A model generated the notes under the pieces. It did not search any database and was not told where the DNA came from. It saw only the letters and a list, made by a program, of their open reading frames with translations. A stretch of DNA of 64,000 nucleotides, taken from an uncultured Pseudomonadales bacterium (GTDB lineage Bacteria > Patescibacteriota > Microgenomatia > UBA1400 > CAYXSR01). Positions 2,515 through 62,651 of the stretch are shown piece after piece. Made by a program: the position numbers and the translations under genes. The stretch is taken from positions 45,872-109,871 of the forward strand of contig CAYSEI010000004.1 of the NCBI GenBank assembly GCA_964430265.1, written 5' to 3'. Within the stretch, counting starts at the first letter, position 1. The number at the start of each line of letters is the position of its first letter.

Positions 2515-2568
2515 AGAGTGAACAGCAGTGAATTGAATTAAAAAATTATTATTAAATTAAAAATTAAT

Positions 2569-7411: not shown

Positions 7412-7427
7412 ATTAAAGGAGAAAAGA

Positions 7428-12661: not shown

Positions 12662-13426
12662 ATGAATAAAAAATATCTATCAGTAATTATCCCGGCGTTT
12701 AATGAAGAGGAAAATTTCAAACGCGGGGCTTTAAAACAAGTAAGCGAGTATTTAGAAAAACAAACTTATGAATATGAGGTTTTATTGGTTGATGACGGTT
12801 CAATTGACAAGACATATGACCTTCTTAAAGACTATATTAAAAACAAGAAAAATTGGAAATTAGTTAAAATTCCTCATCAAGGTAAGTATAAGGCAATAAA
12901 AAAAGGTGTTCAAAAAGCAAGTGGTGAGCTGGTACTCTTTACCGACTTTGACCAATCCACTCCCTTGTATGAATCGGAAAAATTAATTAAAGCAGTTAAA
13001 AACGGAAGTGACTTGGCAATCGGTTCCAGGGAAATTATTGGTGCCAAAAGGGAAGAGGAACCTTTTTACCGTCATTTAATGGGAAAAGGATTTAATTTTG
13101 TTGTCAGAATTATTACAGGACTTTCTTATCATGATACGCAATGCGGATTTAAACTGTTTAAAAAAGAACCGATAAAAAAGATCATAGAAAATGTATCTGT
13201 TGCAGAGAAAAGAAAGGTTGCGGATGCATATACAGGTGCTTTTGACGTGGAAATTCTTTATTTAGCCCAAAAGATGGGTTATAAATCAAAAGAAGTTCCT
13301 GTTGACTGGAAGCATTTTAAAACCCAGCGTGTAAATCCGATTAAAGATTCTTTAAGGATGTTTATAGATATTCTCAAAATTAGGGTTGCTGATTTATTGG
13401 GGGAATATAGAAAAAGTGATGAATAA
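12662..13426 (+). CDS. DPM1/GtrB-like GT2 polyprenyl-phosphate glycosyltransferase
   Basis: SVIIPAFNEEENF...LLVDDGSIDKT...FTDFDQSTP. 254 aa and soluble. Confidence 0.75.
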   Translation: MNKKYLSVIIPAFNEEENFKRGALKQVSEYLEKQTYEYEVLLVDDGSIDKTYDLLKDYIKNKKNWKLVKIPHQGKYKAIKKGVQKASGELVLFTDFDQSTPLYESEKLIKAVKNGSDLAIGSREIIGAKREEEPFYRHLMGKGFNFVVRIITGLSYHDTQCGFKLFKKEPIKKIIENVSVAEKRKVADAYTGAFDVEILYLAQKMGYKSKEVPVDWKHFKTQRVNPIKDSLRMFIDILKIRVADLLGEYRKSDE

Positions 13427-14561
13427 AAAGATCAAACTGGTAATAGGTTTATACTTTCTTTACTTATTTGTTTTAAATATTTTTTCATATACCCAGGTAG
13501 ATTTAAATTTAACCTTGTTCGGTTTTGGTCCGTATTTAAAAGTACAAGAAAAACTTACTCAACTGGGCTATTTTAACAGGCCGTTGAATACCGCTATTTT
13601 ACTTGTTTTATTAATTTTGTCTTTTATTTTCTGGCTGTTTTTTGTTAGGAACAATAAAAAATTTAGTTTAAGCCAAACTAAAAAAATAATTTTAATTACG
13701 GGGTTATTGCTGGTTTTTGCCTATCCGATTTTTTCCCATGACATATTCAATTATATTTTTGATGCCCGCATTTTTACCAAATACAGATTAAATCCATACC
13801 AGTATAAAGCTTTGGATTTTTCAAATGACCCTTGGACAAGGTTTATGCACTGGACGCATCGTACTAATCCTTATCCTGTATTCTGGACTTTATATACCTT
13901 TATTCCTTCAATTTTAGGTCTGCAGATATTTTCTTTTACTTTTTATCTTTTTAAGTTATTTGTTGGAATTATACCTTATTATCTTGCCTGCTTTTTTATT
14001 TACAAAATCAGTAAAAAATACTTCAATACAAAAAAAGCTTTGTTTTTATTTGCTTTCTCACCTTTAGTAATTTTTGAATTTTTAATAAACAGCCATAATG
14101 ATTTATTAATGGTTTCTGTTATGCTTTTTTCTTTATATAAGCTGATGCAAAACAAAAAAATACAATCTTTTTTTGGATTAACAACTTCTGTTTTAGTAAA
14201 ATATGCAACTGCAGCATTAATACCAGTCTATGTTTTAAAGTTTTTTAAAAGGAATCTTAAAAAAGAAAATATTTTAAAAATCTCCTTTTGGCTAATGTTT
14301 TTAATAATGGCAGTTTATTCGTATATAAATGAACTGCAGATTTGGTATTTGATTTGGATATTTCCTTTATCAGTATTGTTATTTAAAAATACCTTTTATC
14401 TTGCAATTTCTTTCCTTATACAACTGATGCTTTTTTTCTACCACGGGTATTTATACTTTGGTGAGTGGAAGTATGGGAGTTTAAGACTTTTGTTTTTTCT
14501 AGTACTTTTAATATTAGCTTTGGGATATAAGACAATTAAAGAAAAATATATTACCAAATAA
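13419..14561 (+). CDS. polytopic membrane protein, PIG-M/GT87(DUF2029)-like mannosyltransferase candidate
   Basis: ATG 13419 overlaps the upstream stop (ATGAATAA). The first-loop motif SHDIFNYIFDARIF...NPY resembles the PIG-M/GT87 motif TDIDYxVFTDAAR...SPY. About 10 predicted TM segments. Confidence 0.4.
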   Translation: MNKKIKLVIGLYFLYLFVLNIFSYTQVDLNLTLFGFGPYLKVQEKLTQLGYFNRPLNTAILLVLLILSFIFWLFFVRNNKKFSLSQTKKIILITGLLLVFAYPIFSHDIFNYIFDARIFTKYRLNPYQYKALDFSNDPWTRFMHWTHRTNPYPVFWTLYTFIPSILGLQIFSFTFYLFKLFVGIIPYYLACFFIYKISKKYFNTKKALFLFAFSPLVIFEFLINSHNDLLMVSVMLFSLYKLMQNKKIQSFFGLTTSVLVKYATAALIPVYVLKFFKRNLKKENILKISFWLMFLIMAVYSYINELQIWYLIWIFPLSVLLFKNTFYLAISFLIQLMLFFYHGYLYFGEWKYGSLRLLFFLVLLILALGYKTIKEKYITK

Positions 14562-27163: not shown

Positions 27164-27992
27164 ACTATTTTCAATTGTTTTAAACTACAGCCGGCCTAAA
27201 GAGACTATCAATGCGGTAAAATCTCTACAAAAACAGGAAGGTGAATTTAAGCAACAGATTGTGGTTGTAGACAATTCAGAAAAGGGAAATATCAGTTTAA
27301 AAGAGTTTGAGGATCAGGAAGATATCCATTTGATCAAAATAGAAAAAAACCTTGGTTACAGCAAGGGAAATAATAGGGGAATAGAGTATGCCTTGGAAAA
27401 AGAAGCAGACTATGTTCTTCTTTTAAATGATGATGCATACTTAAGCAAGGATTGTATAGATAAAATGCTTAAAATAATGGAGAAAAGCAAAAATACAGGA
27501 ATTGCTTCTCCCAAAATATTTTTTGCTCCGGGATATGAGTATCACAAGAAGAAATATGAAAAAGACGATAAAGGCAAAGTTATTTGGTATGCCGGCGGAG
27601 TAATTGATTGGGATAATATACTGGCATCACACCAAGGTGTAGATAAGATTAATAAAAGCAACTTTGACAAGATAGAAAAAACTGATTTTGCTTCAGGATG
27701 CGTAATGCTGATAAAAGCGGAAGTTTTTAATAAAATCGGACTACTGGATCCCAAGTACTTTATGTACTGGGAGGACGTTGATTTTTGCCAGCGTGCAAAA
27801 CAAGCGGGCTACAAAGTTATATATATTGGTAAAGCAGAGGCTTGGCACAAGAACTTGGGAACAGTCAAAGGAGAAGAAAATGAGTTAAAAGAAAAATATA
27901 TGGCTTGGTCACGTCTATTGTTTGCTTTTAAATACGCACCTCTTAAAACAAAACTTCTTTTAATGAAAAAGTTTCTATCTACCTGGGTTTAA
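27147..27992 (+). CDS. GT2 family glycosyltransferase
   Basis: FSIVLNYSRPKETINAVKSL...VVVDNSEKG...LLNDDAY (GT-A fold DxD). 281 aa and soluble. Confidence 0.7.
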   Translation: MKKKIKLFSIVLNYSRPKETINAVKSLQKQEGEFKQQIVVVDNSEKGNISLKEFEDQEDIHLIKIEKNLGYSKGNNRGIEYALEKEADYVLLLNDDAYLSKDCIDKMLKIMEKSKNTGIASPKIFFAPGYEYHKKKYEKDDKGKVIWYAGGVIDWDNILASHQGVDKINKSNFDKIEKTDFASGCVMLIKAEVFNKIGLLDPKYFMYWEDVDFCQRAKQAGYKVIYIGKAEAWHKNLGTVKGEENELKEKYMAWSRLLFAFKYAPLKTKLLLMKKFLSTWV

Positions 27993-29604
27993 GCATGCGA
28001 ATGTTATCAAAGTTTGTATTGCTGACAGGAGTATATTTTTCTTCCAGTTCCGTAAGAATTTCTTGGTATGATCCTGGAAATTTATTCTGATAATTATCGT
28101 ATGCAGACTGATTAAACAAAAAAATGTCCGCCTTTTTATTTCTAATAGTATCAAGCATTGCATTATTCAGACGCTTTGGCCAATCCATCCAGGGATAGTA
28201 ATAGATGAGAATGTTTGCGGGTATGCGATCCGGGAAGTAGAATACTGAAGTTGTTAAATTAACCTGAGTGATTTTTGCGTTCTTGTCAGTGTTTTCTTTA
28301 ATATATTGGGTAACTTTTGGGTATGGGTCTTTAAGAATAAAAGAAGTGCTGAACTTAAATTCAGGTCTGTTTTTTGTATAGTAAGCAAATAAAAGAAAGC
28401 ACAAGAATAAAAAGGGGAGGATTTTTTTCTTTTTTAGCTGTTTTATTGCATACACGGCAAAAAAACCCGCCAGCCAGAAGCTGTAGATATAAAAAGCGGT
28501 GATATGAAACTTTTCTCCAAAGCGCAGCCTAGCGGAAAAAAGAAAGAATGCACTTAATGCAAGTGCTTGTAATTTCTTTTTTTTAAGAAAAACAAACAAT
28601 CCTAGAAGGATAAAAACAAATACAAAAAATTCAAATGTAAACAGCTGATTGTAGTTTTGTTCGTTTATCATAAATAAATGCTTTTTAAAGGTTTGAAAAT
28701 CAAGGGTTTTTATAAAGTCTAAGCTGATTCCCTTGAGTGCTTTTAAATAGGTTGACCCCACAATTACAAGCGTTTTAGATAACTGGTAAAAATGGTTAAG
28801 AAAATCAATGATAAACTTTTTTATTAGACCAGGGAATTTAGGACCGGTTATACCGTATCTAATTGCATAAAATTCAGCGTTGAAAACAAATAAGGACCAG
28901 AATGCAGGATAAAGCGCATTTTTTAAAAGATAATAAAAAATAAATACAGCGGTTCCAATTATATTGGGAAGGAAAAAATATTTTAAATTAGTTTTGTTTA
29001 AGGAGTCCTTTTTGTTTTGGTAAAAATATATTGCGAAAAAAGGTAAAAAGGAAAGCGAATAAATTATTGAATTGGCAATAGTGGTAAACATAAAATATGC
29101 CAATAAAAGAAGTTCGGGTTTGGAAAAACTAAGTTTTTTATCCTGCCAAAGCTTGTTTATAAACATTAAATAAAAACCCAGTAATGAGTAAGCAAAAAAA
29201 GTTTCCGAAGAAAACTGCTGGCCCCCAAACAATATTAGACTCCAAGAAATTAAAGGCAGGCAAATAATTGTAGCCTTACGGATTTCCTTGTCCAGAATTT
29301 TAATCATTAATATCCAGAATATTAAGGCGTAGAAAACCATAAAATATCTGTAAATAATAAGTTTATGCACAAAAAGTTCAATAAAAGCACTGATGTAATA
29401 CATCAAAGGGAAATGGTGTGAGAAAATATCCTTATAAAGGATACGTCCTTTGGTAATCAGCCATCCAATGGCAAAATTATCCATTTCGTCAGGATAGAAA
29501 CCCTTGTCAAAAGTTATCAGTCTGATTTTCATCCAGATGCCCAAAAACAATAAGGGGAGAACTAGCGGAAATAATTTGTTTTTTATCTTATTTTGCATTA
29601 TCAT
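27979..29604 (-). CDS. polytopic membrane protein, putative GT-C-type glycosyltransferase
   Basis: 541 aa with at least 12 hydrophobic segments. First-loop FYPDEMDNFAIGW (acidic D/E motif). Only minus-strand gene within the 5-45 kb plus-strand block. Confidence 0.4.
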   Translation of the reverse strand: MIMQNKIKNKLFPLVLPLLFLGIWMKIRLITFDKGFYPDEMDNFAIGWLITKGRILYKDIFSHHFPLMYYISAFIELFVHKLIIYRYFMVFYALIFWILMIKILDKEIRKATIICLPLISWSLILFGGQQFSSETFFAYSLLGFYLMFINKLWQDKKLSFSKPELLLLAYFMFTTIANSIIYSLSFLPFFAIYFYQNKKDSLNKTNLKYFFLPNIIGTAVFIFYYLLKNALYPAFWSLFVFNAEFYAIRYGITGPKFPGLIKKFIIDFLNHFYQLSKTLVIVGSTYLKALKGISLDFIKTLDFQTFKKHLFMINEQNYNQLFTFEFFVFVFILLGLFVFLKKKKLQALALSAFFLFSARLRFGEKFHITAFYIYSFWLAGFFAVYAIKQLKKKKILPFLFLCFLLFAYYTKNRPEFKFSTSFILKDPYPKVTQYIKENTDKNAKITQVNLTTSVFYFPDRIPANILIYYYPWMDWPKRLNNAMLDTIRNKKADIFLFNQSAYDNYQNKFPGSYQEILTELEEKYTPVSNTNFDNIRMLKPR

Positions 29605-37189: not shown

Positions 37190-38703
37190 AAAAAACAATA
37201 ATTATTCTTATTTTGATCTTAGCCTTAGCAGCTTTTTTACGTTTTTATAAAATTTCAATTTATCCGCCTGGCTTGTATATTGACGAAGTATCAATTGGCT
37301 ATAATGCATATACAATTTTGCAAAAAGGGGTGGACCAGCATGGTGTTAAATATCCTATATGGTTTAAAGCGTTTGGAGAATACAAGCTGCCGGTTTATAT
37401 ATATCTAACCAGTCTGACAATGTTTGTTTTTGGTAAAAGTGTTTTTAGTGTGAGGTTTTTTTCTGCTTTTTTTGGCATTTTAACAATACTTTTCTTCTAT
37501 TTGTTTGTAAAGGATTTATTAAAAAAAGAGTTTAAAAATGAAAGTAAATCAATTGCTTTATTATCTACCTTTTTGTTAACTATTTCCCCTTGGCATTTAC
37601 AGCTTTCAAGGGCAGGTTTTGAAGTAAATGTTGCACTTTTCTTTTTTGTTTTGGGTTCTTGGCTGTGTTTAGTATTTTATCAGCAGAAAAAGTTAAGATA
37701 TCTAATTTTTGGGTATCTTAGTTTCGTATTAACTTTTTATACTTACAACAGCTTTAGATTAATAACACCATTAGTTTTAACATTTTTATCTGTATATTTT
37801 TATGTTAAAAAATTTATTAAAAGAAAAAAATTAGTTATTGTTTACTTGCTGTTTTTTATACTCAGTATCCCAATGCTGTTTTTTTCATTATCAACTGAAG
37901 GCGGAAGAAGGCTAACACAAATTTCTGCTTTTAATAAAGAAGGGATTAATACACCGTTGCAAAAAGCTTTACATTATCCTTTAATTTATTTTAATAAATA
38001 TATTCTGCATTTTTCTAATAATTTTTTGTTTAATTACGGTGACGGAATAAAAAGACATGTAATGAGGGATTTTGGTGTTTTACCCCGCTGGCAGTTACCT
38101 ATAATAATTATTGGAGCTGTTTTTGTTTTTAAAAATATAAAAAAAACATGGAGTAAAGTTTTAGTTGGTTTGATATTAATTGCTCCTATGGCTTCTTCTT
38201 TAACAGATTTAAGTCCACACGCTCTTCGATCTTATTTACTGGTTATCCCATTTATATCCTTGGTATCTTTAGGTTTGTATTTTATTTACAAGAAATTTAA
38301 GGGAATAAAAATGTGGTTTATTTTAACAATAATTAGTTTAGTTGCTTTGTATGAATTTGTTTTTCACCAGCATTTTTATTATGTGCATTATCCGCAGGCA
38401 AGAGTTCTTGACTGGGGCGCTGGATATAAACAAACTGTTGATAAAACAGCTGAACTGGGCAAAAATTATTCAAAAATTTATGTTAGTGAGAAAATTGGTG
38501 GTGAAATATATTTTCAATTTTATAATGATAAATTAGAAGTTGAATTTGTAGAACCGGGAAAAAACAAGCCGGAAGATCTAAAAGGAACAGATATTTTATA
38601 TGTTACCGGTCCAGTTGAAAAACCATCAGATAAAAAGCTAGATGAAGTTTATTTTCCATATAAATTAAATAAAGACGTTTTTGCAACTTTTTGGGAAATA
38701 TAG
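37186..38703 (+). CDS. PMT_2/ArnT-like GT-C glycosyltransferase (array member 3)
   Basis: LYIDEVSIGYNAYTIL, ISPWHLQLSRAGFEVN and SPHALRSYLLVIPF. Confidence 0.6.
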   Translation: MKKTIIILILILALAAFLRFYKISIYPPGLYIDEVSIGYNAYTILQKGVDQHGVKYPIWFKAFGEYKLPVYIYLTSLTMFVFGKSVFSVRFFSAFFGILTILFFYLFVKDLLKKEFKNESKSIALLSTFLLTISPWHLQLSRAGFEVNVALFFFVLGSWLCLVFYQQKKLRYLIFGYLSFVLTFYTYNSFRLITPLVLTFLSVYFYVKKFIKRKKLVIVYLLFFILSIPMLFFSLSTEGGRRLTQISAFNKEGINTPLQKALHYPLIYFNKYILHFSNNFLFNYGDGIKRHVMRDFGVLPRWQLPIIIIGAVFVFKNIKKTWSKVLVGLILIAPMASSLTDLSPHALRSYLLVIPFISLVSLGLYFIYKKFKGIKMWFILTIISLVALYEFVFHQHFYYVHYPQARVLDWGAGYKQTVDKTAELGKNYSKIYVSEKIGGEIYFQFYNDKLEVEFVEPGKNKPEDLKGTDILYVTGPVEKPSDKKLDEVYFPYKLNKDVFATFWEI

Positions 38704-39293
38704 TGAAAAAAAAGTATATTTTTTTACTAGTGTTAATAATTATTTTACAATTAATAACACTTAGACCTGTATTTAGATGCAGTCGTTGGGATAATCAATT
38801 CCATTTTAGTAGCCTGAATTTAAAACTGCAGATAAATTCAGCCATTTTTGCAGATCAAAATGTGCCTAACTTGTTAACCCGCGCTATGCATAACAAGATA
38901 ACCTATTTTGTGCTAGATGTTTTTCGCAGATATATGTACTTTACTGATTTTAAATTTTTATTAAGCTATTTATTACCTGTTGGATTAATTGGTTTTTTAA
39001 CTGCTATTTATTTTATTTTTAAAAATAAAATATTTAAATGTAAATATAGAGATTTCTGGGTAATTATTTTTTCTTTTTCAATACTGACACATTTATTTGA
39101 AATTATATTTAATCCCGGATTGTCTTTTATCTTAAAAACAACAATCTTATTATTACCCCATTATTTATTGTCCAGTTATGGAATTTATAAACTGTTGGAG
39201 AAAAGAACTATTTTAGTTATTTTACTGCTTATTATAAGTGTAATGTGGCTACAGGTTTATTCCCAAGAGATACTTAATTTTTGTATGGTATGA
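38703..39293 (+). pseudogene. truncated remnant of a PMT_2/ArnT-like paralog (middle TM portion only)
   Basis: GTG 38703 (track gives TTG 38691). The 197-aa product ...TRAMHNKITYFVLDVFRRYMYFTDFKFLLSYLLPVGLIGFLTAIYFIFKNK aligns with the HNRR...F...G..Y...K mid-section of its neighbours. It lacks both the N-terminal DE loop and the C-terminal domain. Confidence 0.35.
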
Positions 39294-50678: not shown

Positions 50679-51829
50679 AAAAAATCAAAAAGTATTTGAA
50701 TAAAAAAAGAATATTAGTTTGGCTGCTGCTTTTATTTGGAGTTGCATTAATGGGTACCCTTTTTCCCTTAAAAACCGGTTATCTTGCTGGAGGAAATATG
50801 GATGCATACAAATCCAAGCCTTGGCTTTACTGGCTGGCAAATTTTGACGGCGACCACTATATTTCCATTGCCAAAAGGGGATATGTCCAGTTTCAGCAAG
50901 CCTTTTTCCCTTTATATTCCTATTTAATTTCGCGTATTGCTTCTTTTTTTAAAAATTCTTTTCAGACGTACTTTTTTTCCGGAATAGCTTTATCTTTTGT
51001 TTGCTTCCTTTTATTCTTCCGCTATTTAAAAAGACTTATAAAAAAGGATTTTAAAAAATTTAGTTTTAAAAAAACAAAGTTAATCTATCTTTTATATCCT
51101 ACCGCTTTCTTTTTAATTTCCATTTATACAGAATCATTGTTTTTGTTTTTAGCAGTTGCAGCTTTTTATTTTTACAGCAAGAAAAGAAAAATTCTATATA
51201 TCTTTTTCAGCAGTCTGGCAACAGCTACCAGGTTAATTGGTGTATTTATTCCTTTTTCAATATTTTTAGAATATTTAATTAAAGCTTTTGATGACGAAAC
51301 AAACAAAAAAATATTTTCAGTTGAAACACTAAAAAAAGGTTTAACATCAATTTTAGCTTCCAGCGGTCTTTTATATTACATGAACTATCTTTGGCAGACA
51401 AAAAATGATCCTTTATATTTTTTTCATGTCCAGCCTGAGTTTGGCGCCAACCGCAGCGGGGGAAAGTTAATTCTTCCCTACCAGGTTTTATGGCGTTACA
51501 TTAAAATTATTTTTACTGCCAACCCACGTACTGTAGAATATTTTGTTGCTGTTCAGGAGATTGCTTTAACAGTACTTTTTATTGCAGTATTTTTCTGGGC
51601 AATTAAAAAGGTAAAATCCAGGTACCTGATTTATTCCGGGGCAGTAATTATTTTACCCACTTTAACCGGAACTCTTTCTTCTATGCCAAGATATATTATG
51701 GCGGCTTTTCCTTTGTTTATAGTTCTTAGCAAACTTAAAAAAAGAAAGAAAAAAATTCTTTTGGCGGTATTTGCAATTCTTTTAATTATTAACCTGATAT
51801 TATTCAGCCGCGGATATTTTGTAAGTTAG
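50675..51829 (+). CDS. polytopic membrane protein, PIG-V/GT76-like mannosyltransferase candidate
   Basis: N-terminal loop WLANFDGDHYISIAKRGY resembles the WD..HY..IA..GY motif of GPI mannosyltransferase 2-like (Mannosyl_trans2) proteins. 384 aa, multi-TM. Confidence 0.35.
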   Translation: MKKIKKYLNKKRILVWLLLLFGVALMGTLFPLKTGYLAGGNMDAYKSKPWLYWLANFDGDHYISIAKRGYVQFQQAFFPLYSYLISRIASFFKNSFQTYFFSGIALSFVCFLLFFRYLKRLIKKDFKKFSFKKTKLIYLLYPTAFFLISIYTESLFLFLAVAAFYFYSKKRKILYIFFSSLATATRLIGVFIPFSIFLEYLIKAFDDETNKKIFSVETLKKGLTSILASSGLLYYMNYLWQTKNDPLYFFHVQPEFGANRSGGKLILPYQVLWRYIKIIFTANPRTVEYFVAVQEIALTVLFIAVFFWAIKKVKSRYLIYSGAVIILPTLTGTLSSMPRYIMAAFPLFIVLSKLKKRKKKILLAVFAILLIINLILFSRGYFVS

Positions 51830-52202
51830 AAGAATGCTGTTTAAGCCATTGGCTTATGTTCCCAACATCCATTTGTTTACTTTCAATGCTTAAAACCAAT
51901 TCAATAAATTCGTTTTTTTCTGCTTTAATATTCACGCTATTTATATTTAAAAAATATAAACACGCAGCTAAAGCGGTTCTTTTATTGGCGTCAACAAAAG
52001 CATGGTTCAAGATTAAAGTTTGCAGTAAAACTGCAGCTTTTGAAAAAATACTGGAATATAAATCTTTTCCAGCGAAAGTGGATTTAGGTTTTTCCACTGC
52101 TGAGTAAAGAAGCGATAGGTCACGAATTCCCTTACTTCCCTTACTTTTTTCAAGTATTTTCTGGTGGAGAAAAACAACTTCCTCAACAGTTGGGTATTTC
52201 AT
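51804..52202 (-). CDS. doc: Doc (death-on-curing) Fic-fold toxin
   Basis: HAFVDANKRTALAA matches the Doc-type Fic motif HxFx(D)ANKRTA. 132 aa. The 4-nt overlap with the upstream antitoxin gene is typical of TA operons. Confidence 0.8.
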   Translation of the reverse strand: MKYPTVEEVVFLHQKILEKSKGSKGIRDLSLLYSAVEKPKSTFAGKDLYSSIFSKAAVLLQTLILNHAFVDANKRTALAACLYFLNINSVNIKAEKNEFIELVLSIESKQMDVGNISQWLKQHSSNLQNIRG

Positions 52203-52435
52203 TTTTCAGCAAGCTCATCAAGAAGGCTTTGGTTTTTGCTAATAAAGGTTTCCGCCCATGTTTTTATATTTTCTTTATTGAAAGAGCTATCTTTGGGCTT
52301 AATAATAATAGTCTGGGATTGAATATCAGTATCAACTTTAACTTTTTTACCTATCTTAAGATCAGTTGATTCTAAAAAGTCTTTTGGAATCGTGACGGCA
52401 GCTGAATTGCCGACTTTAATTATTTTTTGAAACAT
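52199..52435 (-). CDS. AbrB/MazE-type (SpoVT-AbrB fold) antitoxin
   Basis: MFQKIIKVGNSAAVTIPKDF matches the swapped-hairpin antitoxin N-terminus (compare MazE/PemI). 78 aa and first gene of the pair. Confidence 0.7.
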   Translation of the reverse strand: MFQKIIKVGNSAAVTIPKDFLESTDLKIGKKVKVDTDIQSQTIIIKPKDSSFNKENIKTWAETFISKNQSLLDELAEK

Positions 52436-52451
52436 GAGTACTTTTCAATTT

Positions 52452-52472
52452 AGTTATAACTAAATTATAACT
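52452..52472. promoter_or_regulatory. candidate TA operator: palindrome AGTTATAACT plus second TTATAACT half-site one helical turn away
   Basis: AGTTATAACTAAATTATAACT read directly, 17 to 37 nt upstream of the antitoxin start codon. TTATAACT at 52454-52461 and 52465-52472. Confidence 0.3.
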
Positions 52473-54556: not shown

Positions 54557-55432
54557 ATGCTAAAATTATTAGCAATGAAAGATTTAGCAATCATAATTGT
54601 CTCTTACAATACCAAAGATTTATTAGACCAGTGTATAAACTCCATATACAAACACACCCGGGATATAGATTTTGAAATTATTATTGTTGACAATAATTCA
54701 TCAGACGGCACAAAAGAGATGATAAACAAGAAATATCCTAATATTTATTTAATTGAAAACAAAGAAAATATTGGCTATGGAAACGCAAACAACCAGGGGA
54801 TGAAAAAAGCTGATGCCAAATATTTATGTCTTTTAAATTCGGATACATATATTCATTCAAATGTTTTTAAAAAGATGTATGATTTTATGCAGGAGAATAA
54901 ACAGGTTGATGTTTTGGGTCCAAAGCTATTGCATCAGAACGCGCATGCTCAAAGGTCAGTGGGAAAAGACTACACACTCCCAATTGTTTTTATAATGCTT
55001 TTTGGCGGAGACAAAATCTTAAGAACCGCACCTAAAAGAACAAAAAAGGTTGATTGGATTATGGGTGCCTGTTTTATGCTTAAAAGCAAAGTATTTGAAA
55101 ATACCAAGGGATTTGATCCGGACTTTTTTATGTATGTTGAAGAAGTGGAATGGTGTAAAAGGATCCGCCAGTCTGGCTTTAATATCTTTCACAACCCCAA
55201 TTTTTCACTTTACCATTTAGAAAGAGGTAGTTCAGGAGGTAAAAAAACAAACGCAATTGTGGGCATTTACAAAGGAATAATGCTTTATTATAAAAAGCAT
55301 TATTCAAAAGTAGGGCAGAGGACTGCCAAATTCCTTCTTAAACTCAAAGCCCAAATTTCAATCATAATCGGCAAATTAATAAAAAGCGATTATTTAATTG
55401 AAACTTACACTAGAGCTTTGGAAGTTTTCTAA
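54557..55432 (+). CDS. GT2 family glycosyltransferase
   Basis: Start trimmed to ATG 54557 (alternative ATG 54575). The track start at 54470 would read through the antisense riboswitch. MKDLAIIIVSYNTKDLL...IIIVDNNSSDGT...LLNSDTY. Confidence 0.65.
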   Translation: MLKLLAMKDLAIIIVSYNTKDLLDQCINSIYKHTRDIDFEIIIVDNNSSDGTKEMINKKYPNIYLIENKENIGYGNANNQGMKKADAKYLCLLNSDTYIHSNVFKKMYDFMQENKQVDVLGPKLLHQNAHAQRSVGKDYTLPIVFIMLFGGDKILRTAPKRTKKVDWIMGACFMLKSKVFENTKGFDPDFFMYVEEVEWCKRIRQSGFNIFHNPNFSLYHLERGSSGGKKTNAIVGIYKGIMLYYKKHYSKVGQRTAKFLLKLKAQISIIIGKLIKSDYLIETYTRALEVF

Positions 55433-56131
55433 TTCTTCTGGAGTTCCTAAAATATTACATTTATCAGCAGTATCAAGAATAAATTTCTTGCCTTTTTTAA
55501 TTAAATCGTTATACATCGGAGCAATATAAAATTCACCTTTTGTTTTTTTGTCTTTTTGAATATGCTTGCTGCCAGTACTAAAAAAATCAGCTGCTTTTTT
55601 AAAATGATACAAGCCTGTTAAGGCTTTGTTTGAAATTGGCTCTTTTTCAGTTAGTCTTTTCACAAAGCCTTTTGCATTAGTTTGGGCAAAACTATAACGC
55701 TTTTTTGTTGATTGAAAAGAGCCGATTACACCGTCAATATTGTTTTTTTTAAGGTTGTCAACTAAGCTTTTTGATTGAAAACAAGTATCAATATTAAAAA
55801 TTAAAAGTGGTTCATCGGGATTAATTTTAGAATGCGCTTTTAAAACAGTTTCTGCTTGGCCCTGGGTGTATTTGGAGATATAAACAAATTCTATTTTATC
55901 TGTAAATTTCTTGTACCATTGATAAACTTTTTTAGAAATATTCAGTTCTTTTTCTTGTTTTTCTAAAGCTACAAAGATAATTTTTGTAGCCAAATCTATT
56001 GGCAGAGAATTTACACTCAATTGTAAAAGAGTTTTATCATGTACTTTAATTAAAGGTTTTGCTGTTTTATAACCAGCTTTTTTAAAACGACTTCCCTTCC
56101 CAGCCATTGGTATTATAATATTAAGCTTCAT
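55394..56131 (-). CDS. sugar-phosphate/phospho-alcohol nucleotidyltransferase (NTP_transferase fold, LicC/MurU/HddC-like)
   Basis: MKLNIIIPMAGKGSRFKKAGYKTAKPLIKV carries the G-x-G-x-R nucleotide-binding loop at the N-terminus. 245 aa. Confidence 0.55.
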   Translation of the reverse strand: MKLNIIIPMAGKGSRFKKAGYKTAKPLIKVHDKTLLQLSVNSLPIDLATKIIFVALEKQEKELNISKKVYQWYKKFTDKIEFVYISKYTQGQAETVLKAHSKINPDEPLLIFNIDTCFQSKSLVDNLKKNNIDGVIGSFQSTKKRYSFAQTNAKGFVKRLTEKEPISNKALTGLYHFKKAADFFSTGSKHIQKDKKTKGEFYIAPMYNDLIKKGKKFILDTADKCNILGTPEELENFQSSSVSFN

Positions 56132-57728
56132 TTAATAGTTTTAATCCGTGAAAATACATAATTTTTTGTTTATGATATGAATCATGATGCAGAGGAGTCA
56201 TGGAGATAAATAATAAGCCGACAATAAACTTGATATCGTTTTTATTATATGACATTTTTTTAATTAAATTTGCGCATAATTTTTTAATCAGTTTGTTTTC
56301 TTTTCTATAATTCAACCGATATTTAATATTTTGCTTTCCAGTTTCAATTTCAAATAGGTTATTAACAATGTAGTCATAACCATAGATTGCAGAATGGGCA
56401 AGTTTGGCAATATCATATTTTTGGTCTCCATAAATACCCGGACATGATCTGCCTAAGCTGCCTCTTTGATCAATTAGTCTAATGATACCGGTTTTTAAAT
56501 CATAAAGAATGTTATTAAAACAAAAATCTCCGTGCATAATGCACAAATGTTTTTTAGCATATAATTTTTCTATACGTGAATCAATTTTATTAGATAAATT
56601 GTCAAGCGGTTGACATTGCAGGTTGTTAATTTGTATTTCTTTTTTATAGAGTTCTTTTTCTTTAACGGGAATCTGTTTTAAGAATTCCTTTATCCTTTTT
56701 TTTGTTTTATGCAAATAAAATTTTTGATAGGTTTTTTTGTCAATTATTGGTTTCTCTTTTTGAAAATGTTTCAGTATTTCTTCTAGATAAGAAAATATTT
56801 TATGCCAATGTGCTGGGTCAATGTCCCAGTAAAGCATATATTCAGCCAGGTTGGGGTAACCGTAGTATTCTATTTTATATCTGTCTTTATTATTGTAAGT
56901 TTTTATCAGCCTGGGAAAATATATGCGGTATTTTTCAGGCAGCTTTTCTAAAAAATTAGCTTCGTTTGCAAGCTTTTTATTGTTTTTTGATTTTTTTGTC
57001 AGTACTCCTGCAGGAAGATTAACACTAATCTGGTTAAATACGCGTGATGCAAGTAATTTGTTTCTTGCTTCAAAATAGTTGATTTCGTGTCCGCAGTCGA
57101 TCCAGTTGACTTTTTTAAATTTCAAGTTAATTTGCTGATTTAATCTTTTAATTAATTCCAAAAGGTCCTGTTGGTTTTCAATTTTAGTTAAGGTCTTTTT
57201 TAATGCCGCAGTTTTTGTATAAAAAAGACCAGTAAATGGATAAGCATGGTTTAAAAAGGATTTGTTTTTAGTCAAAAAAATGGGTTTGTTGTTTTTAAAT
57301 TGGATGCCGGCGCCAACGCGGTAGTTGCGCTGCTTGGATGAAATTTGTACTTCGTTTAATAAGGGAAGACGTGTGGGAATTGTTGTAACTAAATTTACGA
57401 TTATATTTTTTTTAGGTTTTATTTTTTTGATACTTTGCGCTAAGGAGTCATTTACACCGGAAGAGTTTTTTAAAGCGATAAGTGAATAATTGTGTAATGA
57501 CTGATTAAGTTCATTACTTACATTTTGTGCTTGTTTCTGAGAGACAACGACATTTATTGGGAAATTTGTTTTATTTCTGTAAAAGTCCAGCAGGTACCAG
57601 AGCAGGGGTCGGTTATTAACCGGTATTAAAGCTGGCGAAGCAAATTTACTCCTAATATAAGGCAGTTTTTTGCTTATATCACCAGCTGCCAATATTATAA
57701 TTTCAGTTGTAGTTTTATTCTCTGCCAT
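56121..57728 (-). CDS. bifunctional protein: N-terminal nucleotidyltransferase-like domain plus C-terminal APH/choline-kinase-fold kinase
   Basis: N-terminus IIILAAGDISKKLPYIRSKFASPALIPVNNRPLLWYLL is an NTP_transferase-like start. C-terminus HGDFCFNNILYD...IRLIDQRGS matches the Brenner motif HGDxxxxN and the DxxG of APH/ChoK-like kinases. 535 aa. Confidence 0.5.
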   Translation of the reverse strand: MAENKTTTEIIILAAGDISKKLPYIRSKFASPALIPVNNRPLLWYLLDFYRNKTNFPINVVVSQKQAQNVSNELNQSLHNYSLIALKNSSGVNDSLAQSIKKIKPKKNIIVNLVTTIPTRLPLLNEVQISSKQRNYRVGAGIQFKNNKPIFLTKNKSFLNHAYPFTGLFYTKTAALKKTLTKIENQQDLLELIKRLNQQINLKFKKVNWIDCGHEINYFEARNKLLASRVFNQISVNLPAGVLTKKSKNNKKLANEANFLEKLPEKYRIYFPRLIKTYNNKDRYKIEYYGYPNLAEYMLYWDIDPAHWHKIFSYLEEILKHFQKEKPIIDKKTYQKFYLHKTKKRIKEFLKQIPVKEKELYKKEIQINNLQCQPLDNLSNKIDSRIEKLYAKKHLCIMHGDFCFNNILYDLKTGIIRLIDQRGSLGRSCPGIYGDQKYDIAKLAHSAIYGYDYIVNNLFEIETGKQNIKYRLNYRKENKLIKKLCANLIKKMSYNKNDIKFIVGLLFISMTPLHHDSYHKQKIMYFHGLKLLNEA

Positions 57729-58522
57729 AATCTTATTAAAGCTTGTTCAAGTTTCCAGCGGTATTTGTTTATTTTCAGTTTATCTTTTCCAACGCGTAAA
57801 ATATAGCAGTACATGGAAAAAGTTTTTGTTTTTATTTTAGCTTTATTTAGGTGATATCTCATTAATCTTTGCTCGACACGGTAATTTACCCATTGGCCAT
57901 TGCCAAGAGGATTTTTCCAGTAGGAAGGTAATTTTTCCCAGACAGAAGTATAATAATCCATATTAGAGGAATTAGACACGGCAAACTTATCACTTGCCAT
58001 ATACAAAGGAACTGTTCCATATTTATCAACCCAAAGTATATCGAAATTATTTTTTACTATGTTTGGAATTTCCTCCATCAGCATCAAATCCGGTCTAATT
58101 CTAATAACCATATCATAGACAAAATTATTTTCAGCCTCGTAGTTTTTTTTTAGTTGATTGCAAGCATACATTTTATAAAAGAGGGGCAGGTTTGACTTAG
58201 AGTGTAGAGGGCTTTTTTTTCTTAATATTTCAGGTCTGCGGATACCTTTTAATTCATTAAAATATTCTTTTTTAAAAGGCTCGATTACAACTGCTACAGG
58301 AGAATAAAGATCATTCAGAAGTGCATCAGTTACTTTATATGCAGATTTTTTCTTTTTTTGTTTATTTTGAACTCTTTGACCGGTTCTTTCCCAGGTATGA
58401 ATAAAAATGTCAGGCTGCAAAGGCTGCAACATATATTTCTTTAGATTACCGTAACAGCGTTTATAAGTACGCATTTGTCCGGAAATGCAGAGTGCAGTCT
58501 TTAGTTTGCGCTTTTTCTTCAT
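57695..58522 (-). CDS. hypothetical protein (possible GT-A-like transferase), Lys-rich
   Basis: 275 aa and soluble, with no motif I can place confidently. Co-oriented with and overlapping the kinase gene. Confidence 0.35.
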   Translation of the reverse strand: MKKKRKLKTALCISGQMRTYKRCYGNLKKYMLQPLQPDIFIHTWERTGQRVQNKQKKKKSAYKVTDALLNDLYSPVAVVIEPFKKEYFNELKGIRRPEILRKKSPLHSKSNLPLFYKMYACNQLKKNYEAENNFVYDMVIRIRPDLMLMEEIPNIVKNNFDILWVDKYGTVPLYMASDKFAVSNSSNMDYYTSVWEKLPSYWKNPLGNGQWVNYRVEQRLMRYHLNKAKIKTKTFSMYCYILRVGKDKLKINKYRWKLEQALIRLWQRIKLQLKL

Positions 58523-58661
58523 GAATTTAATTATACAACAGATTTTTTCCCCGATTCGGACATTCTTCGAATTTTAGGCAAGTGGAAGCGGACGAAAAAG
58601 CTATGCTGTGAAATGATAAATTAGCAATAATTAAATTTTTTTGTGCTATTATAAAATTATT

Positions 58662-59315
58662 GTGAAAAAGAAACATATTATTACTTCTTTTCTTCTTTTA
58701 ATCTTTTCTATTTTGAGTATTTTTCTTATCTATAAAAATAAAATTCTGCAGAAAGATGCAGATACTTTTCTTGTCCGTGAAGTTTTTGACGGAGATTCTT
58801 TTTTGATTGAGTTGAATGAAGATGTCCGCCTAGTTAACTTAGACGCGCCGCAACTAAAATATTGCATGGGAAAAGAGGCAAAAGAGCGTTTGGAAGAATT
58901 AATCCTTCATAAAGAAATACGTTTGGAAGAGGCAGGAATGGGTGAGTTTAATAGAATCTTGGTTTTTGTATATGTAGATGATTTATTTATTAATGAAATA
59001 ATGGTCAAAGAAGGTTATGCAAGATACCGGCCTTTAAAAACAAATAAAAAAGAAATTATTAAAGAAGCAGATGCATATGCTAGGGAAAATAATTTAGGAA
59101 TTTGGGGCAAATGTAGACAAAGACAAAATCCTGATAATCCGAACTGTAATATAAAGGGAAATATTGAGATCCGCTCAAAAGAAAAAAGATACTTTTTCCC
59201 GGGATGTACAAACTATACTAATGTAATTATAGATAAAGATCTTGGAGAAGAGTGGTTTTGTACAGAAAAAGAAGCACAAGAGGCAGGTTTTGAAAGATCC
59301 GGTGATTGTCCTTAG
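58662..59315 (+). CDS. membrane-anchored thermonuclease (SNase-like) with Cys-containing C-terminal extension
   Basis: GTG 58662 gives MKKKHIITSFLLLIFSILSIFLI as an N-terminal anchor (track TTG 58641). VREVFDGDSFLIELNEDVRLVNLDAPQ matches the SNase motif V.DGDT...RL.GIDAPE. C-terminal NCNIKGN...PGCTNYT...FCTEKEA...GDCP. Confidence 0.6.
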   Translation: MKKKHIITSFLLLIFSILSIFLIYKNKILQKDADTFLVREVFDGDSFLIELNEDVRLVNLDAPQLKYCMGKEAKERLEELILHKEIRLEEAGMGEFNRILVFVYVDDLFINEIMVKEGYARYRPLKTNKKEIIKEADAYARENNLGIWGKCRQRQNPDNPNCNIKGNIEIRSKEKRYFFPGCTNYTNVIIDKDLGEEWFCTEKEAQEAGFERSGDCP

Positions 59316-59336: not shown

Positions 59337-60797
59337 ATGAAAAAAAGATATATATTTCTGCTTGCACTAATTACTCTTCTTGGTTTTTGGTTGCGTTTTA
59401 ATTCAGTTTTTGAAACGGCAATCTATAATGGGGATGAAGGCAGAGATTATTTAAATGCATACCGAATTTGGAATGGTAAGTTAACTCTTTTGGGTCCAGC
59501 TATTTCTACTGTAAGATTTTTTCTGCCTCCTACATGGTATTATTTAGTTTCCATTCCTCTAAAAATCGGCGGTTGGAAAATAGAGGCCGCTCTACTTTTT
59601 ATTAACCTTCTTTATGCAGCCGGAACAGTTATCTACTATTTGCTGGGAAAAGAAGCCACTAATAAGGAAATTGGAGGAATAATATCTGCTGCTCTTTTTA
59701 CATTTTCTCCTTATATGACTAAAGCAGGCAGGTTTACAGGCAACCATATTGTAATTCCTGTTTTTACAGCTGCTTATTTATTGTTTTTAGTCCGTTATTG
59801 GGAAAATAAAAGGAAAAAGGATCTTTTATTAAGTTCTATTCTTTTGGGATTTACTTTTTCATTTCATTTTTCCATGTACTTATTTGTCATAATACAGATG
59901 GGGTTTCTTTTGTATTATTGGCTAAAACAAAAAATTATTAATTGGCAAGAATATATTTTAAATAACATTTCATTGTTTTTCTTCTGGCTGCCCATATTAA
60001 TTTTTGATCTCAGGCACGGATTTATTAATGTAAAGGGATTCTGGTATTACATGAATGAAGGCAGAACAGACCAGTTAAGAGAAACTGTGGGGCAGGGGGC
60101 TTGGTCTGTTAAGAACAACTTACAAGTAGTTGCAGATATTTTTCAGCAATATTTTAGAATAGGGGAAATATGGCCCTGGATTTATTTAATATTGGGAATT
60201 ATTGGACTTTTTCTGGTTATTAAAAAGAATGATAAAAAGGTTATAGTTTTAAGAATTCTAGGAATAATTTTTTTGTTTTTTATAAATGTTTTAATTTACA
60301 ACGGGTATATTGCCTACCACTTCTTTTTTGTCATTGTTCCATTTTATTTTCTGCTTATCAGTATTGGTTTATCAAAAATTATTAAAAGCTATATATTCTT
60401 AACTATTTTTCTTTTAATTATTACTCCTTTTTCTTTGATCTCTAAACAAGCTTATGCAAAAAAACCTAAAAGAGTTTTAAAAGTAAAAAAAGTAAGCAAT
60501 ATCATAATTAATGATTTAAAAAATTCACCAGAAAAGAAATACTCAATTTTTCTTAAAAAGAAAGAGGATTTCTGGGCGTTGGCAAAAGAATACAAATATC
60601 TAGTAGAAATAAAGACAAATAAGGAATTAGTTTCTGATCATCATTATGAGAATGCCGAGGTATTATATGTCGTTTCAGAAATAGAGGCTCCTAATCCTAT
60701 GGATTATGCAAATATTGAATTAGAGAATTTTAATCCCAAAGAAATTGTTTGGGAAAAAGAAGTTGATGACTACAAAATATACAAGCTGAAAAATTAA
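59337..60797 (+). CDS. GT-C-like membrane protein, D-x-G-R-D family
   Basis: YNGDEGRDYLNAYRIWNGKLTLLGPAISTVRFFLPPTWYYLVSIP. Multi-TM with a roughly 110-aa hydrophilic C-terminus. Confidence 0.5.
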   Translation: MKKRYIFLLALITLLGFWLRFNSVFETAIYNGDEGRDYLNAYRIWNGKLTLLGPAISTVRFFLPPTWYYLVSIPLKIGGWKIEAALLFINLLYAAGTVIYYLLGKEATNKEIGGIISAALFTFSPYMTKAGRFTGNHIVIPVFTAAYLLFLVRYWENKRKKDLLLSSILLGFTFSFHFSMYLFVIIQMGFLLYYWLKQKIINWQEYILNNISLFFFWLPILIFDLRHGFINVKGFWYYMNEGRTDQLRETVGQGAWSVKNNLQVVADIFQQYFRIGEIWPWIYLILGIIGLFLVIKKNDKKVIVLRILGIIFLFFINVLIYNGYIAYHFFFVIVPFYFLLISIGLSKIIKSYIFLTIFLLIITPFSLISKQAYAKKPKRVLKVKKVSNIIINDLKNSPEKKYSIFLKKKEDFWALAKEYKYLVEIKTNKELVSDHHYENAEVLYVVSEIEAPNPMDYANIELENFNPKEIVWEKEVDDYKIYKLKN

Positions 60798-60841
60798 ATT
60801 TAATAGATATAAGGAAAACAATTTTTAGTATAATTAATTAT

Positions 60842-62089
60842 ATGAAAAAACAAGAAAATAGAGTAATTTTTAAAATATTTATTTTAGGAATTCTATTACG
60901 TCTTATATTAATGCCTTGGTTTGCTCATGGTGATATTATTGCCGTACATAGAAGAGTAGAAACAATTATTTGCGGAAACAGAAGCCTGCTTAGCTATAGT
61001 GCGATAGGTGTCCATTTTATGGAATCTCTGTTTGCTAAAATATATTCTCCTTTTGTTAACTGCTCAATGCTTTCTGGGATTCAGGAGAGTTATTACAATG
61101 CGCCTTTTATCAACAGGATGCTTTTCTTTTTTAAGTTGCCATATCTTTTGTTTGAAATAGGGTATTGGTATTTAATGTGGATTTTTGCAAAAGATAAGGA
61201 TATAAAATGGAGAAAAATATTTGCTTATTTACTTGCATTTAATCCAGTGGTTATTTTTGCTGTCTATATTTTTGGCCGTTTTGAAGCATATAACCTGTTT
61301 CTTTCTGCTGCTATTTTATATTTATTTAAAAAATACGAAAATCAAAAGCTTGATTTTAAAAAAATCTTTTTATTAACAATTCTTTTTGCGGTTTTACTTC
61401 TATTTAGAAAATCATATGCAATAATTTTCCCTGCGCTTTTACTGGCTTTTGGCTTTCCTAAACTGAAAAGCTTGTATGCAATCTTTATTTCAATTGCTGG
61501 ATATTTTCTTTTTAAGCTATTCAATTTCGTATCCGGGCACGGATTTGATTTAACCAAAGAAATTGACTGGCTAAAAACAGGAACGCATACCCAGTATTTC
61601 TTTGATGCAAAAATATATTTAGGTAATGGCAGATTTATTTATCTTTTCTTTTTAGTATTAGGGCTTGTATTTTTATGGTGGTTGTTTAATAGGAAGAAAT
61701 TATTAGAGTTGGGTAGGGTAGAGGTGTTTTCTCTATTTTCCTTTCTTTTGTTTATGACATATTTTACAACCTCAACATTTCATCCCCACTATTTTTCCTG
61801 GGTTATTCCTTTTCTATTAGTTTTAATAATAAAAAAGAAGGATAAAATCCTTTTAAAATCATTTTATTTAATCATTCCTTTTTACATTCTCTACTTTCTT
61901 AATTGGGGTCCGCATATTACTTTTGGGCTTCTTTTCCCAATTTCTCCTGCATTTAGACAAATTAGCCCTGCTTGGTTTCTTCCATTTTTTTCTTTAAGCA
62001 CTTGGGCAGATATTGGCAGGTACACTTTTTCTGGGATTGGGTTTTTAAATATGCTTTATCTAGCAAGAAAATATGCAAAAAATAATTAA
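60842..62089 (+). CDS. polytopic membrane protein, function unknown (possibly GT-C related)
   Basis: 415 aa with about 11 hydrophobic segments. N-terminal loop PWFAHGDIIAVHRR. Confidence 0.35.
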   Translation: MKKQENRVIFKIFILGILLRLILMPWFAHGDIIAVHRRVETIICGNRSLLSYSAIGVHFMESLFAKIYSPFVNCSMLSGIQESYYNAPFINRMLFFFKLPYLLFEIGYWYLMWIFAKDKDIKWRKIFAYLLAFNPVVIFAVYIFGRFEAYNLFLSAAILYLFKKYENQKLDFKKIFLLTILFAVLLLFRKSYAIIFPALLLAFGFPKLKSLYAIFISIAGYFLFKLFNFVSGHGFDLTKEIDWLKTGTHTQYFFDAKIYLGNGRFIYLFFLVLGLVFLWWLFNRKKLLELGRVEVFSLFSFLLFMTYFTTSTFHPHYFSWVIPFLLVLIIKKKDKILLKSFYLIIPFYILYFLNWGPHITFGLLFPISPAFRQISPAWFLPFFSLSTWADIGRYTFSGIGFLNMLYLARKYAKNN

Positions 62090-62651
62090 AACACTTGTTA
62101 TTATTACAGTTTTGTTTTTTAGCAGTATCAAATCTGCTGATGCTTTAATGGAGCAGGTATTGGTTGTTGAGGATCAAGAGAGTAACAAAGTTACTGTTCA
62201 AGCAGGGGAGAAAATAGAACAGGCGTTTGTCATGCCAACTGACAGTTTTGGAATTGTCACAGTTAACTTTATCCTGCCGGAAAGAGAGAGCAAGGTAAAG
62301 GTGGAGTTTAAAATAAAGGAAAAAGGAGAGGATGGATGGATTTTTGAAGGCAGTAATTTTGTGCATGCACTAGACTTTTACCAGGATAACGGGATACCTT
62401 TCCCTTTTGGGTTTCCTACTATCCAAAACGCAAAAGGTATAGAATATGTGTTTGAAATCCAACCGGAGGAAGAAATAACAATTCTTGAAACTAATGGTAA
62501 AATATTTTTTAGTGTAGCCAGAGAAAAACCTGCAAAAGAGTTAGTATTAAATGATTTACAAAGAAAAATTTATGAAGATGGTATTTTTATTTTTATATGG
62601 TTAATAATTTGTACTGTATTTTTATTTAAATATCTGAAATTAAACAAATGA
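62073..62651 (+). CDS. secreted protein with signal peptide and C-terminal TM anchor, hypothetical
   Basis: MQKIIKTLVIITVLFFSSIKSADA signal-like N-terminus and hydrophobic C-terminal IFIFIWLIICTVFLF. 192 aa. Confidence 0.4.
   Translation: MQKIIKTLVIITVLFFSSIKSADALMEQVLVVEDQESNKVTVQAGEKIEQAFVMPTDSFGIVTVNFILPERESKVKVEFKIKEKGEDGWIFEGSNFVHALDFYQDNGIPFPFGFPTIQNAKGIEYVFEIQPEEEITILETNGKIFFSVAREKPAKELVLNDLQRKIYEDGIFIFIWLIICTVFLFKYLKLNK

Follow-up and report, generated by a model that had tools for sequence, protein, structure and literature searches.

A three-gene kinase, nucleotidyltransferase, and putative glycosyltransferase module from an uncultured Patescibacteriota bacterium is related to the fructosylation genes of Escherichia coli K4

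Results

We analyzed a 64,000-nucleotide stretch of DNA, hereafter the window, from an uncultured bacterium (GenBank assembly GCA_964430265.1, contig CAYSEI010000004.1, positions 45,872 to 109,871 of the forward strand; named Pseudomonadales in GenBank and placed in Patescibacteriota by GTDB). Its minus strand carries a compact block of three open reading frames (ORFs), UNK275, FUS535, and NT245 (table 1). The original prediction described them as co-oriented and overlapping, coding for proteins of 275, 535, and 245 amino acids, and the ORF list and the DNA agree with it in coordinates, quoted motifs, and the 34-nt overlap of UNK275 and FUS535, with the ATG of FUS535 lying within the end of UNK275. 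FUS535 and NT245 overlap by 11 nt at the stop of the former. The block is divergent from a nuclease-like gene at 58641, and its NT245 end is convergent with a glycosyltransferase family 2 (GT2) gene that ends at 55432. A consensus scan of 55100–58800 found 15 promoter-like sites versus 17.3 expected from shuffled sequence and one weak terminator-like hairpin 67 nt beyond the NT245 stop, which we do not use as evidence. The three ORFs are real genes and not chance ORFs, because each has many homologues and the AlphaFold models of FUS535 and UNK275 are confident. It is reasonably probable that they form one translationally coupled operon whose products make an activated sugar and transfer it to a glycan.

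Table 1. Coordinates of the three genes of the module and of the two domains of FUS535 within the window
Feature	Coordinates	Strand	Description
UNK275	57695..58522	-	275 aa; DUF7796 / KfoD-C-terminal-like, predicted GT-A fold; putative transferase for the activated sugar
FUS535, whole ORF	56121..57728	-	535 aa; contains HGDFCFNNIL...IDQRGS
FUS535, N-terminal domain (residues ~1–222)	57063..57728	-	RmlA-like nucleotidyltransferase fold without catalytic signature; probably non-catalytic, binding or regulatory
FUS535, C-terminal domain (residues ~223–535 plus stop)	56121..57062	-	APH/ePK-like small-molecule kinase with intact catalytic residues
NT245	55394..56131	-	245 aa; starts MKLNIIIPMAGKGSRF, with MAGKGSRF motif; canonical sugar-phosphate nucleotidyltransferase, KfoH/orf1-like

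FUS535 had been proposed to join a nucleoside triphosphate (NTP)-transferase-like N-terminal region to a C-terminal kinase, with NT245 as a separate NTP-transferase, and Pfam had been put forward as a check on each domain. That check bears out NT245 only, which scores 39.3 bits against PF00483 (cut-off 21.2). The halves of FUS535 score 16.6 bits against PF00483 and 14.6 bits against PF01636 (cut-off 23.2), both below threshold, and do not match PF01633; in NCBIfam, the protein has sub-threshold matches to models of NTP_transferase or APH type only. A precomputed PF01636 match is nevertheless present in some of its homologues. Both halves are recognized by a profile built from 36 homologous sequences and compared with solved structures. 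Residues 4–218 match an ST0452/RmlA-type nucleotidyltransferase (E 1.4e-5), and residues 239–414 match APH(2'')-Id (E 8e-4), with matches to APH structures ranging from that value to 0.1. A profile of the kinase half alone matches the APH(3') and ACAD10/11 kinase domains in the Protein Data Bank (PDB) marginally (E>=0.1). Among solved structures, neither profile reached LicA, AmgK, or NahK. The AlphaFold model of FUS535 has a predicted local distance difference test score (pLDDT) of 89.9, and Foldseek supports the assignment of its N-terminal half, whose best PDB matches are RmlA, GlmU, and ST0452 (top E 4e-9 to 4ecm; target-normalised template modelling [TM] score up to 0.73 versus the same entry).

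Residue conservation was assessed in an alignment of 79 homologues of FUS535, five of them from E. coli. In the kinase half, K245, S247, E256, H399-G-D401, C403, F404, N406, D420, R422, and G423 are invariant in all 79. They include the features of APH, choline kinases, and eukaryotic-type protein kinases (ePK), namely the HxDxxxxN loop, the Mg-binding Asp (D420), the beta-3 Lys (K245), and the alpha-C Glu (E256). With this set intact, the kinase half looks active, as judged from sequence.

The N-terminal half presents a different picture. The GxG[TS]R signature is absent from all 79 homologues and no Arg is conserved there; the position of the catalytic lysine (PK motif) is occupied by A, G, S, or C and never by K. 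FUS535 itself reads AAGDISKKL...SPA where the signature and the Lys motif would stand. At the position of the Mg-binding Asp, after beta-strand 4 in the GD motif, 52 of the 79 sequences have D and 27 have T, and FUS535, like the rest of its clade, has a Thr (T115, VTT). W209, D211, and G213 are invariant. Because the arginine of GxG(T/S)R and the catalytic lysine are missing, the domain is probably a binding or regulatory domain and not a second enzyme. The proposal of an NTP-transferase-like region in FUS535 thus survives as to fold and falls as to a working second nucleotidyltransferase. It is improbable that FUS535 is truly bifunctional, with an N-terminal domain that uses a non-canonical site to make a nucleoside diphosphate (NDP)-sugar alone while NT245 activates another substrate. 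The well-predicted fold, the three invariant residues, the GDT with its Mg-binding Asp kept in the 52 sequences, and a frequent K21 would suit a bifunctional enzyme, as would the precedent of fused pyrophosphorylase-kinases such as FKP (PMC11982464). But the catalytic Arg and Lys are lost family-wide, the Mg-binding Asp is replaced in FUS535 itself, and the canonical nucleotidyltransferase encoded next door in nearly all loci (see below) would be superfluous if the fusion sufficed alone. By analogy, we infer that the domain may bind a sugar phosphate or an NDP-sugar, as a docking partner for NT245 or as a product sensor. In GMPPA/GMPPB, the inactive nucleotidyltransferase paralogue GMPPA regulates the active GMPPB. 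The module resembles such pairs in that a catalytically empty domain of this fold is kept beside an active nucleotidyltransferase, and differs in that its inactive copy is part of a kinase fusion.

NT245, in contrast, has the canonical residues of a separate NTP-transferase, as had been proposed. G11, R15, K25, and D115 of the catalytic set are invariant in 78 of 78 homologues, and G13 is found in 76. By these residues, NT245 is the one of the two nucleotidyltransferase-like proteins that is competent for catalysis.

UNK275 was originally called a protein of unknown type, co-oriented and overlapping with its neighbor. The arrangement stands, but the label no longer applies. A sequence search recovered 31 homologues, and 22 of 30 family members match DUF7796; no solved relative was detected by sequence. 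The structure prediction suggested for this ORF gave an AlphaFold (AF2) model with a pLDDT of 90.7, and the best matches in the PDB are GT-A glycosyltransferases: BoGT6a of family GT6 (E 2.6e-7), followed by the ABO transferases GTA/GTB and glycogenin. These matches are modest (TM 0.36–0.53, identity ~10%). A10, G15, F40, R143-P144-D145, and D178 are invariant in the family. UNK275 differs from the retaining GT-A enzymes of GT6 (BoGT6a, ABO) and GT8 (glycogenin) in lacking a DxD motif; the invariant motif is RPD, which closes strand 138–142, together with D137 and D178, and BoGT6a is itself metal-independent. UNK275 has no CAZy family assignment. Based on the model and the gene linkage, UNK275 is likely the transferase of the module, with a predicted GT-A fold.

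The fusion had been thought an unusual arrangement, a view that its distribution overturns. When 1.84 billion representatives were searched with HMMER, 712 clusters (50% identity) reached E<=1e-30, 2030 reached E<=1e-10, and 3137 reached E<=1e-3, almost all with a length of 520–570 aa. Contigs of one genome per species from bacteria and archaea contain >561 relatives, from Acidobacteriota, Verrucomicrobiota, Bacteroidota, Myxococcota, candidate-phyla bacteria, Thaumarchaeota, Woesearchaeota, and Xenorhabdus, among others; E. coli has them as well, including KfoE. We fetched 80 loci. In 74, a homologue of NT245 is encoded no more than 1.6 kb away and in the same orientation; of the six loci without one, three are truncated by the end of a contig. 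A small HAD phosphatase is encoded in 62 loci, as a separate gene in 54 and fused to the nucleotidyltransferase in 8; the other 18 have no HAD. In most loci the HAD gene stands between the fusion and nucleotidyltransferase genes, and its product is a minimal enzyme of ~120 aa closest to TIGR01689, "EcbF-BcbF capsule biosynthesis phosphatase". We refer to the linked fusion and nucleotidyltransferase genes, with or without HAD, as the cassette, and to individual loci by L numbers. The two closest relatives, L001 and L002, are arranged UNK-FUS-NT as in the window and likewise have no HAD, whereas L088 has the order UNK-FUS-HAD-NT. Within this large, conserved family, whose only studied members are the fructosylation genes of E. 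coli K4, the module is a variant that lacks the HAD.

An aminoglycoside-resistance function for the FUS535 kinase was considered and rejected, given the invariant linkage to a nucleotidyltransferase within polysaccharide loci. Database names in the family vary. RefSeq labels enzymes of the NT245 type "glycosyltransferase family 2 protein" (L083 10989–11720, L084 8186–8932, and L086 9811–10566), and KfoE-type fusions are labeled "capsular biosynthesis protein", "aminoglycoside phosphotransferase family protein", "nucleotidyltransferase family protein", or "hypothetical". These are probably systematic mis-annotations.

The relatives in E. coli connect the family to capsules of known composition. 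A search for distant DNA matches, with the cassette of Xenorhabdus as query, found 131 E. coli genomes, and among them strain SCU-115 (L083) has a complete K4 capsule locus. Its order is kpsMT, kfoA, kfoB, kfoC (686-aa polymerase), kfoD (477 aa), HAD (126 aa), kfoE (522 aa), a gene for a 243-aa "GT2" protein that is the nucleotidyltransferase, kfoF, kfoG, and kpsSCUDE. The published KL4 gene list agrees with this order; the two genes unnamed there are a "putative phosphatase" and a "putative glycosyltransferase". All three proteins of the module have counterparts in K4. FUS535 and KfoE are 28% identical over residues 208–531 (BLASTP E 5e-32), and E. coli homologues align with FUS535 through both domains in the 79-sequence alignment. 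NT245 is 34% identical to the 243-aa protein over its full length (E 6e-33), and UNK275 matches the C-terminal half of KfoD (BLAST E 4e-10; family hidden Markov model [HMM] E 1.6e-17). Like the module, the K4 genes kfoD-orf3(HAD)-kfoE-orf1(NT) encode the same three protein families in a co-oriented, overlapping row, and the fusions are of similar size (522 vs. 535 aa) with alignable kinase halves, although BLAST does not align their N-terminal halves. The K4 row differs in having a small HAD gene between kfoD and kfoE, and KfoD has an N-terminal region of ~200 aa that UNK275 lacks.

The K4 capsule is chondroitin with beta-fructofuranose on GlcA, and deletion of kfoE yields unfructosylated chondroitin (PMC7925653, PMC10609508). 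KfoE is called a fructosyltransferase on these genetic grounds alone, and kfoB, kfoD, and kfoG are listed as being of unknown function (PMC10609508, PMC7925653). The kinase sequence of KfoE does not fit the name; as far as sequence can tell, lost synthesis of the donor would explain the kfoE phenotype equally well.

Two other capsule loci of E. coli contain the cassette with DUF7796. Plasmid CP103510.1, named as a K11 kps plasmid (PMC10433991), encodes a row of a 562-aa DUF7796 protein (family HMM E 8e-29), a HAD, a 536-aa fusion, and a nucleotidyltransferase. Among group-3 types, K11 alone has no rhamnose genes, and the legend of a structure figure in the same source lists fructose and glucose (PMC10433991). 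The other is a third kps locus (L084), found in 40 genomes, one of them that of an O15:H18 ST69 strain; in this locus an 833-aa protein is followed by nucleotidyltransferase, HAD, and fusion. The K11 structure of 1990 is said to contain fructose. The 833-aa protein (L084 5647–8148, directly upstream of the cassette) is an acyltransferase fused to a C-terminal DUF7796 (family HMM E 4e-25). The ST69 lineage typically carries K52, termed "the fructose-containing K52" in a paper title and reported among the most invasive E. coli capsule types. We guess that L084 is the K52 locus; if so, the 833-aa protein could link the acylation of a residue to its transfer.

The cassette is not confined to loci with known fructose. 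It also occurs in the E. coli O78 cluster (L085 8001–10728, ETEC H10407), which in addition encodes a WavE-family protein, and in the O20/O137 cluster (L086 7854–10566). In strain ES1, it is part of an ABC-transporter-dependent O-antigen cluster that also has a WavE gene (L092 6808–9421 and 11109–12131), and in strain TOE51 of a kps locus that encodes a 1157-aa "HAD-IA family" protein (L091 6165–8826). Overall, ~10 cassette loci carry WavE-family proteins in place of DUF7796. Homology of WavE and DUF7796 is not claimed; they share a local ISGQ...TWE-like motif, but the hhalign probability is 1.6%.

Within the window, the module is surrounded by what is effectively one glycosylation island spanning the whole stretch. 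At least 17 paralogous genes for GT-C-type membrane glycosyltransferases (PMT_2/PMT, YfhO, PTPS_related, and PIG-V-like) form a long run at 10464–50678 and 59337–62089, interleaved with many GT2 and GT4 genes. This array and the low GC content would suggest a bacterium of candidate-phyla type. Genes at 1498–4020 and 5169–9319 encode RmlB/C/D-like proteins of the rhamnose pathway, a UDP-glucose dehydrogenase (Ugd), two GDP-mannose-4,6-dehydratase-like proteins, and an epimerase; they are followed at 9316–10467 by a gene for a GT2-GtrA polyprenyl-phosphate sugar synthase. A Fic/DOC-family gene (51804–52202, minus strand; PF02661, E 2e-15) stands alone on its strand amid glycosylation genes, beside a gap at 52203–52460 where a partner antitoxin might lie. 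The product of the nuclease-like gene next to the module (58641–59315, plus strand) resembles staphylococcal nuclease and has a hydrophobic segment at its N terminus and an extension containing Cys at its C terminus. Five ORFs of 190–540 aa have no Pfam match (13386–14561, 27979–29604 on the minus strand, 38691–39293, 60842–62089, and 62073–62651), and several look like polytopic membrane proteins.

Discussion

We propose that the module makes and uses an activated sugar in three steps. The APH-type kinase domain of FUS535 would use ATP to phosphorylate a sugar, most likely on its anomeric hydroxyl; NT245 would join the sugar phosphate and an NTP into an NDP-sugar; and UNK275 would transfer the sugar to an acceptor that the glycosylation island around the module produces. 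That the module follows this logic of kinase, nucleotidyltransferase, and transferase is quite likely. Where a HAD is present, the order fusion-HAD-NT and the HAD-NT fusions of relatives suggest that reactions proceed from kinase to phosphatase to nucleotidyltransferase, and this would resemble the HddA/GmhB/HddC route to GDP-heptose and the HldE pathway, in which a sugar phosphate is converted to a bisphosphate, a sugar-1-phosphate, and an NDP-sugar. The systems differ in that the kinase of the module has an APH fold and not a GHMP or PfkB fold, in that the HAD of relatives is the ~120-aa TIGR01689-like enzyme, and in that the HAD step is missing in the window. The variant without HAD would start from a free sugar or borrow another phosphatase.

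A kinase and a nucleotidyltransferase that feed a donor into glycosylation were anticipated in the original prediction; that general logic holds up, but neither of the two pathways named for it, LicA/LicC and AmgK/MurU, does. In the first, the kinase would act on choline or a small alcohol, the nucleotidyltransferase would make a CDP-alcohol, and a phospho-substituent would be added to a glycan. The module has a kinase of the same superfamily, since the APH fold is common to choline kinases, and likewise pairs it with a nucleotidyltransferase; moreover, some homologues are labeled "choline kinase" by JGI. It has no choline-kinase signature, however: PF01633 does not match, and the score of 14.6 bits is against the APH model. 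Pfam scans of nearly all window ORFs of >=120 aa found neither LicB nor LicD, the partner is modeled as a GT-A-fold protein and not a LicD phosphotransferase, and K4, which requires kfoE, has a fructose branch and no phosphocholine. We regard a LicA/LicC-type function as highly improbable. A shade less probable still is a salvage pathway of the AmgK/MurU type, in which an anomeric kinase and a uridylyltransferase recycle MurNAc/GlcNAc to UDP-sugars for the cell wall. Here and in NahK/GlmU, an APH-superfamily anomeric kinase is followed by an enzyme of the NTP-transferase fold, as in the module, and there is a weak match to the MurU model (NF045761). Yet this match covers residues 5–44 only, at 17.5 bits versus a cut-off of 250, and no AmgK-like or other anomeric amino-sugar kinase, solved or profiled, was reached. 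The kinase of the module differs further in carrying a degenerate nucleotidyltransferase-like domain, its operon encodes a dedicated transferase, and the context in the family is always a polysaccharide, capsule, or O-antigen cluster, not murein recycling.

As to the sugar, the requirement of kfoE for the beta-fructofuranose branch of K4 and the gene set in the K11 locus make a labile 2-ketofuranose such as fructose the most likely candidate. Fructose would be activated as NDP-fructose via fructose-2-phosphate (Fru-2-P), and with HAD the pathway would lead from Fru-6-P to Fru-2,6-P2, on to Fru-2-P, and finally to NDP-Fru. The assignment to fructose specifically is tentative. The module may follow the same three steps with a different sugar, such as xylulofuranose, another ketose, or a pentofuranose, and specificity may vary within the family. 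We consider this rather unlikely, since the E. coli capsule loci with cassette and DUF7796 that can be tied to a structure all specify polymers with fructose (K4, K11, and probably K52). In its favor are the low identity of FUS535 to KfoE, the transferase partners that differ by locus (DUF7796, WavE, GT2), and the presence of the cassette in O78, O20/O137, and the cluster of strain ES1, all without known fructose. The published structures of O78 and O20/O137, as given in titles and a review, contain no sugar that would need the cassette, which hints at an overlooked labile substituent. At these O-antigen loci, either the sugar is a different one or an acid-labile ketofuranose is lost in the standard acid release of O-polysaccharide. 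Genes for NDP-xylulofuranose (NDP-Xulf), needed for the ABC-dependent O95/O97, are stated to be unknown (PMC7685785). This gap would fit the broader reading of a ketofuranose and also a sugar other than fructose.

Several observations weigh against fructose as the sugar and against parts of the proposed pathway. KfoE is only 28% identical to FUS535, and BLAST aligns its kinase half only. Most cassette loci have other candidate transferases, for example, WavE or GT2. DUF7796 in turn also occurs without the cassette or beside CMP-sugar synthetases: in Salinibacter (L087) no cassette is nearby, in L090 its neighbors are a HAD and a CMP-sugar synthetase, and a FUS-like gene lies 5 kb upstream, and in L089 (6001–8750) it is followed by a stand-alone APH kinase of 280 aa and a 364-aa NT-HAD fusion. 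This kinase has no nucleotidyltransferase-like domain and no BLAST similarity to FUS535; the HAD part of the NT-HAD fusion is 52% identical to K4 KfoI. The HAD is common in the family, but tblastn of the window with three HAD representatives gave nothing better than E 0.7, so the pathway may differ here. Cassettes are found in the O78 and O20/O137 clusters, and fructose has been reported in no E. coli O antigen. The fructose of K11 is taken from the figure legend, elimination, and the 1990 structure, and L084 is assigned to K52 only tentatively. Lastly, Campylobacter jejuni HS:1 relies on one different gene, HS1.08, to add fructose, and a DUF7796 profile search did not recover it.

Searches of a paper library returned nothing relevant on bcbF/ecbF, or on bacterial fructose-2-phosphate or fructose activated as its NDP, UDP, CDP, or GDP derivative. 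To our knowledge, the donor for the fructofuranose branches of bacterial capsules (K4, K11, and K52) has never been identified. More tentatively than the assignment to fructose, we suggest that the family represents the missing prokaryotic route to nucleotide-activated ketofuranoses. The fusion would contain a kinase that makes Fru-2-P, directly or via a 2,6-bisphosphate trimmed by HAD, and a pseudo-nucleotidyltransferase that senses the product; the separate nucleotidyltransferase would form NDP-fructofuranose, and DUF7796/WavE-type proteins would be the real fructosyltransferases. If the ketofuranose reading is true, KfoE is misnamed in the chondroitin literature, and acid-labile branches of fructofuranose or xylulofuranose are widespread but overlooked in bacteria and archaea, including E. 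coli O78 and candidate phyla.

The module is not categorically new, but a pathway of kinase, nucleotidyltransferase, and GT-A transferase makes the old question of the fructose donor directly testable with few purified proteins. K4 is the industrial strain for chondroitin, and the answer would clarify which of its genes to delete or retain in order to control the fructosylation of chondroitin. A solved substrate would annotate thousands of genes across bacteria and archaea and could bring to light acid-labile sugars that published O-antigen structures, such as that of O78, have missed.

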